Origin: Spirochaetales bacterium | GTDB taxonomy: Bacteria > Spirochaetota > Spirochaetia > Treponematales > UBA12059 | NCBI GenBank assembly: GCA_016928955.1 | Contig: JAFGJV010000004.1 | Location: 385,736-414,617, forward strand | Direction: 5' to 3' | DNA: 28,882 bases | Shown: one piece after another, positions 19,498 through 23,979 of the stretch | Layout: every line of letters begins with the position of its first letter | How positions within the stretch are numbered: position 1 is the stretch's first letter | Translations under genes and position numbers: made by a program | Notes under the pieces: model-generated | Seen by the model: the letters and a program-made list of their open reading frames with translations, nothing else | Databases searched by the model: none | Told to the model about the DNA's origin: nothing

Positions 19498-20379
19498 TCA
19501 GGCGGCGCGTACCCCAAAGCCTGCCAGCACCGTATGGATCAGGCGTTCGCAGTCCTCGTGATCGGTATGGTAGCCGCCTCGCTCTGTACGCTGCCTGATG
19601 ACCACGGTGCCATAGTCGTCGTCCCCGCCGCGTTCCACCTCGTAGCCCCGCGCCCGGAATTCCGCGAACGACGCGTGCGTGGGCCCCGAGCGCCCGCGCG
19701 TCAGCACGACCGCGTACATATACGGCACCTGCCCGTTGGGTCCGGTATTGATGGCCACCTGGAACTGGACGCCAACCAGGTCGGCCGGCTTGCGCCTGGG
19801 TTCCAGCATCAGCCTCATGTCCTCAGGCACGTCCTTGCCGTCGGCGTCCTTGTCAAAGCGCAGATACGGCGTGAGCACAAAGCCGTCGGGCAGGCGGACC
19901 GACATGACGGACAGGAAACTGGGCAGGATGCGGTTCAGCGTTGGCGGCGTGAAGGCAGACACGCGGCCAAAAAAGAGCCCGGGCACGGAGAACAGCGCGG
20001 TGTCGATCAAGGCCAGCGACAGGGTACCCGATACGGGCATGGCTATCAGTGCGGCCAGGCCCAGGCCCATAAGGCCGAGCACTCCCAGGGCCACGGGTCC
20101 GGCCAGCTTGGCCTTGATATTGCGGGTTTCCCGAATACCGTCGGCTATCCGGTCCACCTCCGCCACGGATACCGGCCGCCATTCTTCCAGGCCTTGGTCG
20201 TCCGGCTTATTGGTCACGGGCTTGATGGCCAGCACCAACCACGCCGCGGCTATGGCCGGCACGGACAACAGGGGCAGGCCCAGAACGGTCTGGCATACCA
20301 CAGCGAGCGCGTACAGGCCACCGGCGGCGGCCAGCCTAGCAGAAAGGCCCAGGCGCCCGAATCGGTAGTTCAGTTCCAT
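19498..20379 (-). CDS. hypothetical membrane protein (about 4 TM plus soluble C-terminal domain), last gene of the radical SAM operon
   Basis: MELNYRFG start with GAAGGAG SD, overlapping the end of the radical SAM gene by 10 nt. Two hydrophobic hairpins, then a polar domain. Confidence 0.8.
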   Translation of the reverse strand: MELNYRFGRLGLSARLAAAGGLYALAVVCQTVLGLPLLSVPAIAAAWLVLAIKPVTNKPDDQGLEEWRPVSVAEVDRIADGIRETRNIKAKLAGPVALGVLGLMGLGLAALIAMPVSGTLSLALIDTALFSVPGLFFGRVSAFTPPTLNRILPSFLSVMSVRLPDGFVLTPYLRFDKDADGKDVPEDMRLMLEPRRKPADLVGVQFQVAINTGPNGQVPYMYAVVLTRGRSGPTHASFAEFRARGYEVERGGDDDYGTVVIRQRTERGGYHTDHEDCERLIHTVLAGFGVRAA

Positions 20380-21671
20380 GCGGATTTCTCCTTCCACGCG
20401 GCTTTCAGCTCGTCATAGCCGTTGACGCGCCAGTACAGCGGACAGGCTGCCTGGCAGGCGGTGAATAGGGAACAGGACCTGCATTCATCGGGCGCGTAGC
20501 GCTTGTCCTTGAGAAAGGCCGCCCGCTCCGAGAACCACACAGCCCGGAAGCCGTCGGCCAGAAGGTTGCCCACGGGCTCCGGCCAGGACGAACACGGCAG
20601 AACGTCCCCTGAAGGCGACACGGACAGAAGCCCGTCGCAGGCGGCGCAGCTTTTGTTCCCAAGCCCCCGCGCTATGGGGTTGTACACGCACATGGGCATG
20701 GGCGAATACCAGAGAAAATCCACGCCGGCCGACAGCGCGGCCTTGCGGACCCTGTCTATGAACGCGCCCGTGTCAGCGTAGCTCAGCGACAAATCCCGCT
20801 CAGTCATGCCCCTGCCGGCGGGTATGAACAGGTTCATGGACATGCGGCGTATGCCCAGGCTGGCAACGTATGCAGGCAGTTCCAAAAGGGCGTCCAGGTT
20901 TTTTGCCGTGGCCGTGGAATTGGTCTGGACCTCCACGCCCGCCTTCATGAGGGCGCGGATACCGGCCACGGTTTCCGCAAAGGCGCCGCGCCTGCCCACC
21001 AAGAAGTCGTGCGTCCCCGCGTCCGGGGCCTCAAGACTGACCTGAGCCGTGCGGAGTCCGGAACGGACCAGCGAGCGTGCCCGGGCCTTGTCGGCCAGGG
21101 TGCCGTTGCTGACCAGGTTTACGCGCAGGCCTTTGGACACGGCGTACGCGGCCAGCTCCTCTATGTCCTTCCGCACGAGCGGCTCGCCGCCGGTAAACGA
21201 GAAGAACGGCAGTTTTGCCTCGTCTCGGAATATGTCTATGACGCGCTTAAAACCGTCCGTGTCCAGTTCGTGCCCGCCCTGCACCTTGGCCAGGCCGTCG
21301 TCGCCCCCGCAGCCAGCGTAACAGAACAGGCAACGGTTGTTGCAGCGGTAGGTAACGGCTATCTCCCCGAGCACGGGCAGGCGCGTGAAGGAAAAATCGT
21401 AGGGCACACGGTCAAGCGACGACGCCTGTCCGCGGGCGGCCCGTTCCAGGTCGCGGAAAAAGGAGTCCACCTCGGCGGCACGTCCCTCGTCCATGCCCGG
21501 TATGTCCTCAAAGCGCCCGCCCGCCCCGAGGAACTCGACCAGCTGGGCACCTGTGGCATTGGTCTTGTACACCTGGTTAGGCGGCAAGATAACCACGTTG
21601 TCCTCCGTGCGCGCGTACGCGTACGGCCCAAGATCGAACCAGAAGCGGTATATCCAGGACAGGCGCTTCAA
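20370..21671 (-). CDS. radical SAM/SPASM-domain protein with an N-terminal PqqD/RRE-like region
   Basis: CNNRCLFC (CxxxCxxC), FTGGEPL, SNGTL, QVSLE, and SPASM cysteines CAAC...GDVLPC...CRSC.LF..CQAACP. The real start is probably the TTG at 21671, which overlaps the upstream TGA (433 aa). Confidence 0.92.
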   Translation of the reverse strand: MKRLSWIYRFWFDLGPYAYARTEDNVVILPPNQVYKTNATGAQLVEFLGAGGRFEDIPGMDEGRAAEVDSFFRDLERAARGQASSLDRVPYDFSFTRLPVLGEIAVTYRCNNRCLFCYAGCGGDDGLAKVQGGHELDTDGFKRVIDIFRDEAKLPFFSFTGGEPLVRKDIEELAAYAVSKGLRVNLVSNGTLADKARARSLVRSGLRTAQVSLEAPDAGTHDFLVGRRGAFAETVAGIRALMKAGVEVQTNSTATAKNLDALLELPAYVASLGIRRMSMNLFIPAGRGMTERDLSLSYADTGAFIDRVRKAALSAGVDFLWYSPMPMCVYNPIARGLGNKSCAACDGLLSVSPSGDVLPCSSWPEPVGNLLADGFRAVWFSERAAFLKDKRYAPDECRSCSLFTACQAACPLYWRVNGYDELKAAWKEKSAWN

Positions 21672-23353
21672 TGGGCGCCCCCGGACACGCAGGCCGAGTG
21701 GCAGGCCGAGTGGCAGGCCGAGTGGCACGCCGAGTGGCACGCCGAATGACAGGCGTCGTGGCAGGCGTTGTGGCAAGCCGAGTAGCAGGCGTCCACCGTG
21801 CCGGTATTGGGCGGAGTGAAGCAACCCGAGTAGCAGGCGGCCGAGCGCATGAACTCGGCATAGCCCGACTGCATCCCGTCCGGGAGCCTGAGCTCCGACA
21901 GGTAGCCGGGATGGGACACTACCCGCGCGTAGCCGTGCCAGTACGACCAGTACCGATGGTCGCGTCGGTAGGCTGTCCTGCGCTCGTCAGTCCAGGTTTC
22001 CTGCTCGCGCGCAAGCTCCGTTTCCTTGGCCAGCCTGTCGCGGTAGAAAGCCTTGGTGGCCTCCAGGTCGCAATCCCAGAGCTTCTCCTGCAAACCTTTG
22101 ATGGCGTTCTCAAAAAAATCTGCCAGAAGGCCGGCCAGCACGTTGCCGTCCGCGTCAAAGGCGGCCAGGAAGGCCTCTTCCAGGGGATGTCCCGCTTTCT
22201 TGCCGGACAGGAAGCTAACGCGTAGCGGCTGTTCGCTCGTGATGGCCACGATGCCCTGGCCCCTGAGGCCTTCCAGCATGATGGCGGCCACCCGCGGCAG
22301 GGGCAGCTCCATGAGCAAGGCCACTTCCACGGGATGGAGGTCGTCACGCACCTTGCCGGGCACCTGGAAACTGCCCACAAAGAGTTTGGGCGGCGTCCAC
22401 GAGTCGCCTGCCCAGGCTATGCCTCCAACCATGGCCGCCCTGGCCGCGTGCCCCTTGGCGCGTTTATGGTACAGGAACAGGGCCAGGGCTATAGCCCCCC
22501 CGAACAGGGGAACAGCGAGCAAAGCCGGAAGCGCAAGGGGACGGATCCCGGGTTCTTGCTGGAAACCCACGCCGCTGTCTTCTGTGAACATGTTCGGTTC
22601 CGGCGTTGCGAGCCCTGAGCCGGCGTCGTCCAGTGCAACATCAATGCCCAGCCAGTCTTTTGGGAAATACAGCATGAGGTGCTGGCTTTCCTCGACACCC
22701 GGTCCCTCCTGATGGAACAGAATGGTCAGGTAATGACGCCCGTCATTCCCCGGCGACCCGTAGTAGTCTATCCGGTTCTGGCTGTTGACCTCGGGTTCGG
22801 TCAGCATGGGCACGGCCGCCTTGTCTTCCTGGCTGAGCTCGGGGCCATCCACCGACACAGGCGTCACCAGCCGCACGGTGCGGCTTTCCAATGGCTCGTC
22901 CCAGGTCACGGGCCCCCAGGAAAAGTACACCAGCGTGCCGTGCTCGTCGCTTTCCGTGATGCCCAACAGGCCGGCGCCCACCAGGTTGCCCGAGTAGTTC
23001 AGGTTGTAGTACGCCGTGCCCGAAAATCGGCGTCCGTCGGCAAGGAGCACGTCAAAGCGCGAGCCCAGGTCGTCTATCCGTAGCGGCACCCGCACCTGGC
23101 CTTCTAGGTCTGCGTAGCAGCGTTCCGGGTTCCACACCGGCTGGAACGCCTCGCCCTGAAAATAGAAACCGCCCATGGTGCCCTGGTCCACCCGCCATTC
23201 ATAACGGTGGAAAAACTCGCCCAGGCCGTCTGGCCTGAGCACCACGGTGATATCGGCCGACACCAGGTCGGCGTCCAGGGCGTACGCGGGCGACGCGGCG
23301 AGCGCCGTGGCCAGCGCAAGCGCCAGCGCGACGCGGAAAAACCTGCTGTTCAT
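21668..23353 (-). CDS. exported/membrane protein (DUF2207-like ectodomain, 1 TM) with a C-terminal Cys/His CxxxC-repeat tail
   Basis: Signal peptide (MNSRFFR, hydrophobic stretch, AYA), beta-rich ectodomain, TM [23 protein letters not shown] followed by HKRAK, L.PVEVA.L motif. Ends [13 protein letters not shown](CHSA)5CVSGGAH. Confidence 0.88.
   Translation of the reverse strand: [561 protein letters not shown]
21689..21790 (-). repeat. 12-bp tandem repeat (8.5 units) encoding (C-[H/Y]-x-A)n
   Basis: Plus-strand units: gcaggccgagtg x3, gcacgccgagtg, gcacgccgaatg, acaggcgtcgtg, gcaggcgttgtg, gcaagccgagta, gcaggc. Confidence 0.97.
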
Positions 23354-23964: not shown

Positions 23965-23970
23965 GCCCAT

Positions 23971-23979
23971 ACTGTAGCA
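23971..23979 (-). promoter_or_regulatory. extended -10 promoter, leaderless configuration
   Basis: Minus strand TGC-TACAGT, then 6 nt (ATGGGC), then ATG at 23964. No SD. Confidence 0.55.

Follow-up and report, generated by a model that had tools for sequence, protein, structure and literature searches.

In a stretch of 28,882 nucleotides (nt) from a Spirochaetales bacterium (assembly GCA_016928955.1, contig JAFGJV010000004.1), hereafter the window, a cassette of four overlapping genes was identified on the minus strand. Its second gene encodes a membrane protein ending in a Cys/His repeat, and its third encodes a radical S-adenosylmethionine (SAM) enzyme with a SPASM domain. With a probability of approximately 0.62, the enzyme encoded by gene 3 modifies the C-terminal tail of the gene 2 membrane protein, the two genes forming a module of their own. 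The choice of the tail as target is supported by the pairing of the two genes, by the build of the enzyme, in which a domain like the recognition element (RRE) found in systems for peptides made on the ribosome and modified after translation (RiPPs) precedes the radical SAM core and the SPASM domain, and by the finding of no other candidate substrate in the cassette.

The repeat tail and its adjoining enzyme

Gene 2 (21668..23353, minus strand) encodes a DUF2207-like membrane protein of 561 amino acids (aa) with a Cys/His repeat tail. It had been described in an earlier note on this DNA as a protein with a signal peptide, a single transmembrane (TM) helix, and a Cys/His repeat end, and both the translation and the layout of an AlphaFold2 (AF2) model agreed with that description. 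In the model (mean pLDDT confidence score of 81), a signal peptide is followed by an ectodomain, a TM helix, a cytoplasmic domain, and the tail. Residues 27-231 were modeled as a confident beta-sandwich ectodomain, similar in a Foldseek comparison (E of approximately 5e-7) to ribophorin I/Ost1 and to the M1 aminopeptidase N-domain, while one long TM helix was predicted from residue 277 and a winged-helix-like and helical domain at approximately residues 341-480. The tail is probably cytoplasmic, since a signal peptide and one predicted TM helix come before it and basic residues follow the helix, in line with the positive-inside rule.

The gene 2 protein of the window was assigned to no family in Pfam or NCBIfam, and it did not match DUF2207 (Pfam accession PF09972) even at E<=10. 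The N-terminal domain of DUF2207 was matched weakly by 12 of 30 gene 2 homologues (best E 9.3e-6). Like DUF2207 proteins, the gene 2 protein has a beta-sandwich ectodomain, a signal peptide, and membrane-spanning helices, whereas descriptions of DUF2207 include neither a Cys/His tail nor coupling to a radical SAM gene, and no literature linking DUF2207 with radical SAM was found. A profile built for gene 2 retrieved 537 cluster representatives (50% identity) at E<=0.001.

The tail spans residues 498-561 (21671..21862, minus strand) and is composed of an aromatic motif, the element C507-x-x-G-C511, and a repeat core (21689..21787, minus strand), in which nine Cys are spaced at i, i+4 from C523 to C555 in units of [A/G]-C-[H/Y/F]-x. 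Tail sequences were compared for the window and 80 related loci. Exactly nine Cys in the CxxxC register were found in 76 of these 81 tails and eight in two, and the remaining three were cut or frameshifted. In an alignment of 30 sequences, the aromatic motif (Y498, F501, M502, and S504) and C507-x-x-G-C511 were invariant columns, and the columns from A526 to H561 were almost all invariant, compared with a mean column identity of 55% over the protein. In a set of 193 distinct tails drawn from all subtypes, the residue following the Cys (C+1) was mainly His (88%), with Tyr or Phe in 11%; C+2 was mostly Ser (79%) but could also be D, N, Q, G, H, A, or K; and C+3 was Ala (93%) or Gly (6%). The His codons of the tails vary (794 CAC and 543 CAT), and the selection therefore acts on the protein. 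The occurrence of Ala or Gly before every Cys, together with an aromatic or imidazole side chain after it, is more in keeping with a unit that an enzyme recognizes than with mere binding of metal.

Distant relatives had from three to 13 Cys in the tail. Most of them terminate in CVSG-x-x-H, and the distant subtype terminates in CVSSF, with a tail that reads SFSYD-(ACHS)3ACV-HS(ACHS)2ACV-(C/H)HS(ACHS)2ACVSSF. The pattern occurred only once in the 99.5%-complete genome from which the window is derived, where no second copy was found. Other frames of the tail DNA were also found to be open: the frame of gene 3 extends upstream across the tail (21671-21824) as an alternative frame rich in Pro, Leu, and Gly repeats, and another frame of the repeat reads PATRPATRP, as was seen in the database protein P0005 and in the locus L268. 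In both of these entries the tail is broken by a frameshift or a run of N, so such entries hide the tail in annotation. An apparent fusion of genes 2 and 3 in L268 was rejected as an artefact, as 67 N within the tail shift the frame.

Gene 3 (20370..21671, minus strand) encodes a 433-aa protein in which a radical SAM core stands between an RRE-like and a SPASM domain. The earlier note had recognized in it a CxxxCxxC radical SAM enzyme with SPASM cysteines and an extra N-terminal region, and all of these were recovered, the extra region being modeled as three strands followed by helices within residues 19-79. The RRE-like (PqqD-like) domain lies at 21435..21617 (approximately residues 19-79), the CxxxCxxC cluster motif at 21321..21344 (C110, C114, and C117), and the SPASM region at 20442..20690 (C328, C342, C360, C397, C400, C406, and C410), all on the minus strand. 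The three Cys of the cluster motif and the seven C-terminal Cys were invariant in 30 of 30 gene 3 homologues, and residues 397-410 have the spacing CxxCxxxxxCxxxC. The seven SPASM Cys are predicted ligands of auxiliary 4Fe-4S clusters. Gene 3 was placed in the Pfam families Radical_SAM (PF04055; E 4.8e-23, 82.6 bits against a cut-off of 29.5) and SPASM (PF13186; E 4.5e-7, 30.5 bits against a cut-off of 21.5). No NCBIfam cut-off was passed, the top match being AhbD with 141 bits against the 500 required.

The AF2 model of gene 3 (pLDDT 84) comprises an N-terminal helix, a set of strands and helices, the radical SAM barrel, and the SPASM region. Its N-terminal elements were three strands (residues 19-21, 26-29, and 33-36) and two helices (residues 39-49 and 62-79), a predicted topology that agrees with the leader-binding winged-helix fold (three strands and three helices) of PqqD-like domains, and the conservation of the N-terminus starts right after the TTG start codon. 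Structural neighbors of the model (Foldseek, VIA) included SkfB (Z 28.1), SuiB (Z 25.8, residues 9-424), anSME (Z 24), CteB (Z 23), and PqqE (Z 22), and the whole-length alignment with SuiB takes in the SuiB N-terminal domain. As modeled, the enzyme thus has the three-domain build (RRE-like, radical SAM, and SPASM) of RiPP and peptide maturases. SkfB, CteB, and SuiB, which are thioether-forming RiPP maturases of solved structure, share both the fold and the domain order of gene 3, but the sequence similarity is at the level of the superfamily only (E 7e-21 to 5e-13), and their substrates are short leader-core peptides, in which SuiB makes a Lys-Trp link.

Co-occurrence of the tail and the enzyme

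A relative was found in 231 species-level genomes, and 80 close relatives were kept for counts. All co-occurrence counts given here were derived from largely related spirochaete genomes and are not independent of one another. The close relatives were nearly all metagenome-assembled genomes of Spirochaetota and included Rectinema subterraneum and Gracilinema caldarium; among cultured, non-pathogenic spirochaetes, the system occurs in R. subterraneum and Spirochaeta dissipatitropha. Three related loci (L016, L017, and L021) were labelled Myxococcales, which could reflect binning errors. A tailed homologue labelled Candidatus Ozemobacteraceae (P0049) was also observed, and the family may extend past the Spirochaetota.

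Gene 3 followed gene 2 in 76 of the 80 close loci, and the other four loci end inside gene 2 or within approximately 70 nt after it. In a sample of 401 genomes of the phylum, gene 2 was found in 25 genomes and a gene 3 orthologue (E<=1e-40) in 27, and all of the former were among the latter; no other radical SAM gene in this sample reached E<=1e-40. One of the genomes with an additional gene 3 (G287) has a contig that starts inside the tail, and in another genome (G051) the pair is divided over two contig ends. When loci were fetched from this sample, gene 3 lay directly downstream of gene 2 in 20 of 20. The pair was also kept in a distant subtype, where the gene 2 protein is 911-1062 aa in length, contains several TM helices, shares 25-30% identity, and carries a tail of its own. 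The earlier note had set the co-occurrence of the tail with the adjacent radical SAM gene as a check on its interpretation, and the outcome was in its favor: tailed homologues almost always adjoin gene 3, while the enzyme orthologue is almost never found without a tail.

The junction of the two genes was conserved as well. In the window, the TGA stop of gene 2 and the TTG start of gene 3 share bases in a TTGA overlap (21668..21671, minus strand), such that CAT-TGA closes gene 2 and TTG opens gene 3 (CAT-TGA/TTG, 21668-21673). The CAT-TGA end was found in 72 of 79 close-clade loci, compared with a use of CAT for 41% of the internal His codons of the tail. This sharing of bases suggests a translational coupling of the two genes.

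A blind scan of metagenomes was performed with a DNA pattern for C-H-x-A-C-H-x-A-C-H-x-A-C only, and it returned 80 loci. Among these were 56 true tails, of which 49 were followed by gene 3 downstream on the same strand, three had less than 700 nt of downstream DNA, and four (L111, L157, L180, and L185) had 785-4488 nt of downstream DNA without gene 3. Other simple repeats accounted for 19 loci, and five contained no open reading frame (ORF) with the pattern. In L156 the match falls within a phage-like region, where a larger ORF carries it in another frame; it was taken as a simple repeat and rejected.

The locus L154 (1444-7200) encodes a protein of 144 aa that has a signal-peptide-like start, ends in C-H-x-A repeats, and is otherwise unrelated to gene 2. 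On its flanks lie four radical SAM/SPASM genes that fit no known class, their best matches (DynA, AmcB, and anSME) all being far below the cut-offs. In this locus, C-H-x-A repeats are thus paired with radical SAM/SPASM enzymes a second time, independently of gene 2.

Tail-less relatives of gene 2 were also found, among them the cluster P0063 and the full-length relatives P0037, P0048, P0065, P0070, and P0083. In one genus, three genomes encode a tailed gene 2 with genes 3 and 4, and no gene 3 was found in a genome of the same genus that carries a tail-less gene 2 variant of the P0063 type, this genome being only 70% complete. The tail-less cluster P0063 has 56 members, on contigs of up to 187 kb; in the sole genome found for it (G658) the gene is cut by a contig end, and no close relative of the cluster was found in the order-level genome sample.

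Accessory genes and genomic surroundings

The remaining genes of the cassette are gene 1 (23350..23964, minus strand), whose product of approximately 204-206 aa has N-terminal hydrophobic helices and a helical C-terminal part, and gene 4 (19498..20379, minus strand), which encodes a 293-aa membrane protein with a soluble domain at its C-terminus. The earlier note had described four overlapping genes on the minus strand, and the ORFs, the translations, and all three junctions were found as described. Besides the junction of genes 2 and 3, direct reading of the sequence showed an ATGA overlap of the gene 1 stop with the gene 2 start (23350-23353) and a 10-nt overlap of genes 3 and 4 (ATGGAACTGA, 20370-20379). 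The ORF of gene 1 is open to a TTG at 23991 (23350-23991), and a start at ATG 23964 or 23970 is favored over it because the homologues are 204-206 aa in length.

No family in Pfam or NCBIfam was found for either gene 1 or gene 4. A search of the Atlas gave a weak lead from gene 1 to PF10112 (score 0.89), and gene 4 had matches only within its own cluster. Gene 1 was found upstream of gene 2 in 68 of the 80 loci by tblastn, and its hidden Markov model (HMM) matched only close-clade loci among L081-L185. Gene 4 followed in 69 of the 80 loci, the remaining 11 running out of DNA. In the intermediate subtypes, its HMM placed it downstream of gene 3 or, in L158, L159, and L176, in the space between genes 2 and 3, and in the most distant subtype it was not detected by HMM. 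Since gene 4 was not detected in the deepest subtype and gene 1 is limited to the close clade, the invariant core consists of the tailed gene 2 and gene 3, and gene 4 is a frequent accessory. In a distant locus, L082 (12663-14458), gene 3 is followed by two genes, one for a coiled-coil protein of 421 aa and one for a membrane protein of 178 aa, whose products each have zinc-ribbon-like C-x-x-C pairs, and hemB- and hemL-like genes, identified by eye from their translations, lie upstream on the other strand.

The claim of the earlier note that the cassette stands behind one candidate promoter was not confirmed, as a simple sigma-70 scan returned no promoter-like sites in 19300-26300. Upstream of gene 1 lies a gene for a protein with an OmpA C-terminal domain (24031..25623, minus strand; Pfam OmpA E 2.1e-15). 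The gap between the two is only approximately 40-65 nt, and the OmpA-domain gene was directly upstream of gene 1 in 18 of the 80 loci, which indicates that the transcription unit may begin further upstream; the OmpA-domain gene possibly belongs to the same unit as genes 1-4. Contigs from RNA libraries (four runs of two studies, 90-99% identity) cover most of 19400-24100 and span both the junction of genes 2 and 3 (e.g., 20736-21827) and that of genes 1 and 2 (22576-23573). They hint at expression of the cassette, although DNA carry-over is possible and the contigs do not equal single transcripts.

On the other side of the cassette, genes for a Memo-like protein (18096-18935, plus strand, E 1.5e-32) and an AMMECR1 protein (18877-19482, plus strand, E 1.9e-51) overlap each other and converge on gene 4. 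Members of the Memo and AMMECR1 families are partners of a third, radical SAM protein of the activase type. Two genes beyond the cassette, a sigma-54-dependent response regulator (16677-18023, minus strand) with receiver, sigma-54 interaction, and Fis-type helix-turn-helix domains was observed.

Proposed modification and alternative explanations

In the mechanism proposed here, a ribosome would complete the tail of gene 2 and re-initiate on gene 3. The N-terminal RRE-like domain of the enzyme would bind the aromatic motif ahead of the repeats (Y-x-x-F-M-x-S-x-x-C), for which Y498, F501, M502, S504, and C507 are the natural candidate for recognition. The radical SAM core would then take a hydrogen atom in each repeat unit, and the SPASM clusters would assist, such that one covalent modification is installed per unit. 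The modified protein would remain in the membrane, with no peptide released. Cys thioethers are the commonest outcome for radical SAM/SPASM enzymes of such type, and the likeliest product would be a run of crosslinks that take in the Cys sulfur and close small rings, which would turn the tail into a rigid and possibly metal-binding ladder; a heterocycle and a His-based cyclophane are further possibilities. If the bond joined Cys to the beta carbon of the aromatic residue located three positions upstream, it would resemble NxxC-type links. In its most specific form, which is tentative and rated at somewhat short of even odds, a ladder of eight or nine crosslinks is written into the cytoplasmic tail by the re-initiated enzyme, maybe of an undescribed type (e.g., Cys sulfur to the beta carbon of the His, Tyr, or Phe three residues upstream), to give a rigid metal-binding rod for DUF2207-like sensing or signalling.

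The earlier note had interpreted the tail of a full-size membrane protein as the target of RiPP-type crosslinking. The membrane-protein tail as target gained support from the co-occurrence, the enzyme build, and the want of another substrate, while the crosslinking of whole proteins turned out to have precedent. Radical SAM/SPASM enzymes with an RRE that act on whole proteins are described for QhpD/QhpC and CrpC/CrpA (PMC13692751). The CrpC/CrpA system of Methanococcus voltae (September 2026) includes a CrpA protein of 28.8 kDa and a CrpC enzyme with a seven-Cys SPASM domain, for which a free iron site for the substrate Cys is proposed (PMC13692751). It is similar to the cassette in that a large protein with C-terminal Cys repeats is adjoined by an enzyme whose radical SAM core is combined with a seven-Cys SPASM domain and an RRE (an RRE-like domain in the cassette), the product being a modified protein, as predicted for the cassette, and no free peptide (PMC13692751). 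However, CrpA is soluble and has 17-residue repeats with C-x-x-Q/D motifs, whereas a four-residue repeat ends an integral membrane protein here (PMC13692751). The cassette also includes no CrpB-like paralogue, and gene 3 does not belong to the CrpC family TIGR04463 (rSAM_vs_C_rich), for which the gene 3 locus scored 39.8 bits (E 1.5e-10) against a cut-off of 525.

QhpD, a radical SAM/SPASM enzyme with an RRE that serves in the maturation of quinohemoprotein amine dehydrogenase, makes several Cys thioethers in a subunit that is kept in a complex (PMC13692751). In contrast, QhpC is a small secreted subunit with three specific Cys-Asp/Glu links (PMC13692751), and no dehydrogenase genes lie nearby in the window; TIGR03906 (QhpD) was not among the best 25 of 71 NCBIfam matches. 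The CXXX-repeat (TIGR04115, rSAM_Cxxx_rpt) and ACGX-repeat (TIGR04340) systems share with the cassette a period-four Cys pattern beside a radical SAM/SPASM enzyme. Their targets are short stand-alone peptides. No member of TIGR04115 (>350 bits) was found, as nothing in the window genome matched it at E<=0.001, and gene 3 scored 70 bits for TIGR04340 against a cut-off of 400. The earlier note did not recognize a characterized system here, and we concur: the homologues carry generic database names ('radical SAM protein', 'hypothetical', 'DUF2207 domain-containing'), and a literature search returned no account of this system or of a membrane-protein tail as target, though it may sit among the further radical SAM-associated Cys-rich proteins in the supplement of the report above (PMC13692751). 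The concept has precedent, and what is new is the membrane-protein tail as target, the repeat, and the enzyme family.

Several observations weigh against a modification of the tail by the gene 3 enzyme. The loci are mostly from related spirochaete genomes, and shared ancestry inflates the counts. The RRE is weak by sequence, as PqqD (PF05402) was matched with E 0.038 and 14.7 bits, below the cut-off of 23.4, and the NCBIfam ranking of gene 3 places the tetrapyrrole enzymes AhbD (141 bits) and NirJ2 (123 bits) ahead of PqqE/MftC (approximately 92-95 bits). The variability of C+2 and the acceptance of Gly at C+3 leave no obvious fixed side chain as acceptor, and the AF2 model draws the tail as a helix of low confidence (pLDDT <50). 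The four tails of the blind scan without gene 3 in the 785 to 4488 nt downstream, among them L111, where a convergent gene follows instead, represent exceptions to the pairing. So does the genome G322 (94% complete), which encodes an orphan enzyme, a 456-aa gene 3 homologue of 383 bits with assembled upstream DNA, and in which neither gene 2 nor the tail pattern was found anywhere in the genome. The orphan gene is located at L101 (G322:C23, 50-1420), and the congener G310 has the full pair. Furthermore, both the binding of the tail and its modification are inferred, as are its topology, its role as a substrate, and the chemistry; what the analysis establishes is the gene anatomy, the conservation of the tail, the adjacency and co-occurrence of the two genes, their start/stop overlap, and the architecture of the enzyme. 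A co-folding of gene 3 with gene 2 residues 452-561, three 4Fe-4S clusters, and SAM scored 0.02, which says nothing either way.

Cys/His-rich tails that bind metals without modification are common, and the tail could instead be a metal-binding, iron-sulfur-binding, or docking element that tethers, regulates, or supplies an enzyme acting elsewhere. The stop/start coupling, which implies approximately one enzyme per tail, suits a stable complex as well as catalysis, the seven-Cys SPASM region could accept a tail Cys as a cluster ligand, and the orphan of G322 shows that the enzyme can persist without the tail. This explanation nonetheless appears unlikely: positions that are not ligands, such as the Ala/Gly before each Cys, are nearly invariant while Phe is accepted at the His position, the number of repeats is fixed, gene 3 has the build of a peptide maturase with an RRE-like domain, and no further gene for a substrate is kept in all three subtypes. 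Common descent alone would produce a high adjacency in loci that come mostly from one phylum, and genes 2 and 3 might then be neighbors merely co-inherited in spirochaetes, with no direct functional link. It is highly improbable that this accounts for the pair, which survives at 25-30% identity with changed flanks and with insertion or loss of genes 1 and 4, keeps its start/stop overlap, and has a homologue labelled outside the Spirochaetota (Candidatus Ozemobacteraceae); apart from G322, the enzyme orthologue was also found only in genomes with the tailed protein.

The position of the repeats at the C-terminus, as in core peptides, and the adjoining enzyme of RiPP type could also be taken to mean that gene 2 encodes a giant precursor, the modified tail of which is cut off as a free peptide as in a classical RiPP. 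The earlier note had seen no short precursor, protease, or exporter in the operon, and the analysis agreed with it: the cassette showed neither a protease or exporter gene nor a short Cys-rich ORF, and protease and exporter families were found neither in genes 1-4 nor in any cassette subtype. The candidate target comprises residues 498-561 of a 561-aa membrane protein, which differs from a RiPP in the strict sense, where a protease frees the usually exported product from a short precursor made of leader and core. The 500 residues ahead of it are well conserved and form confidently predicted folded domains, and the tail is predicted to be intracellular. We therefore give this explanation a very low probability. 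A tetrapyrrole system, in which the overlapping C-x-x-x-C-H units are variant haem-binding motifs and the tail receives a tetrapyrrole, or has one altered on it, through an AhbD/NirJ-like enzyme, would be in line with the top NCBIfam matches of gene 3 (AhbD, NirJ2, AhbC, and NirJ), with the reading of each neighboring Cys pair and the next His as CX3CH, and with the hemB and hemL genes that adjoin the pair in L082. That neighborhood, however, was seen in this one locus only, all of these family scores fell far short of their cut-offs (for AhbD and NirJ, TIGR04545 and TIGR04055, 141 and 123 bits when 500 are needed), and Tyr or Phe replaces His in some units. Gene 3 also has an RRE-like domain, and no such domain is known in tetrapyrrole radical SAM enzymes of the AhbD/NirJ kind. 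Because a search of the 99.5%-complete genome turned up no porphobilinogen synthase (ALAD), this reading was set lower still, close to negligible.

Comparative genomics gives good support to the predicted modification of the tail by the gene 3 enzyme. Should the tail indeed be modified by it, integral membrane proteins would join secreted peptides and soluble proteins as targets of RiPP-type radical chemistry, and the ladder proposed above, if true, would make the gene 2 product the first membrane protein with a modification of RiPP type. A first mechanistic handle would also be gained on the large and functionally uncharacterized DUF2207 family, and the units of [A/G]-C-[H/Y/F]-x, eight to twelve in number, would offer a compact substrate for the study of an iterative radical SAM enzyme. 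The system is widespread, as reflected by its relatives across the species-level genomes, and its presence in cultured spirochaetes makes it testable.

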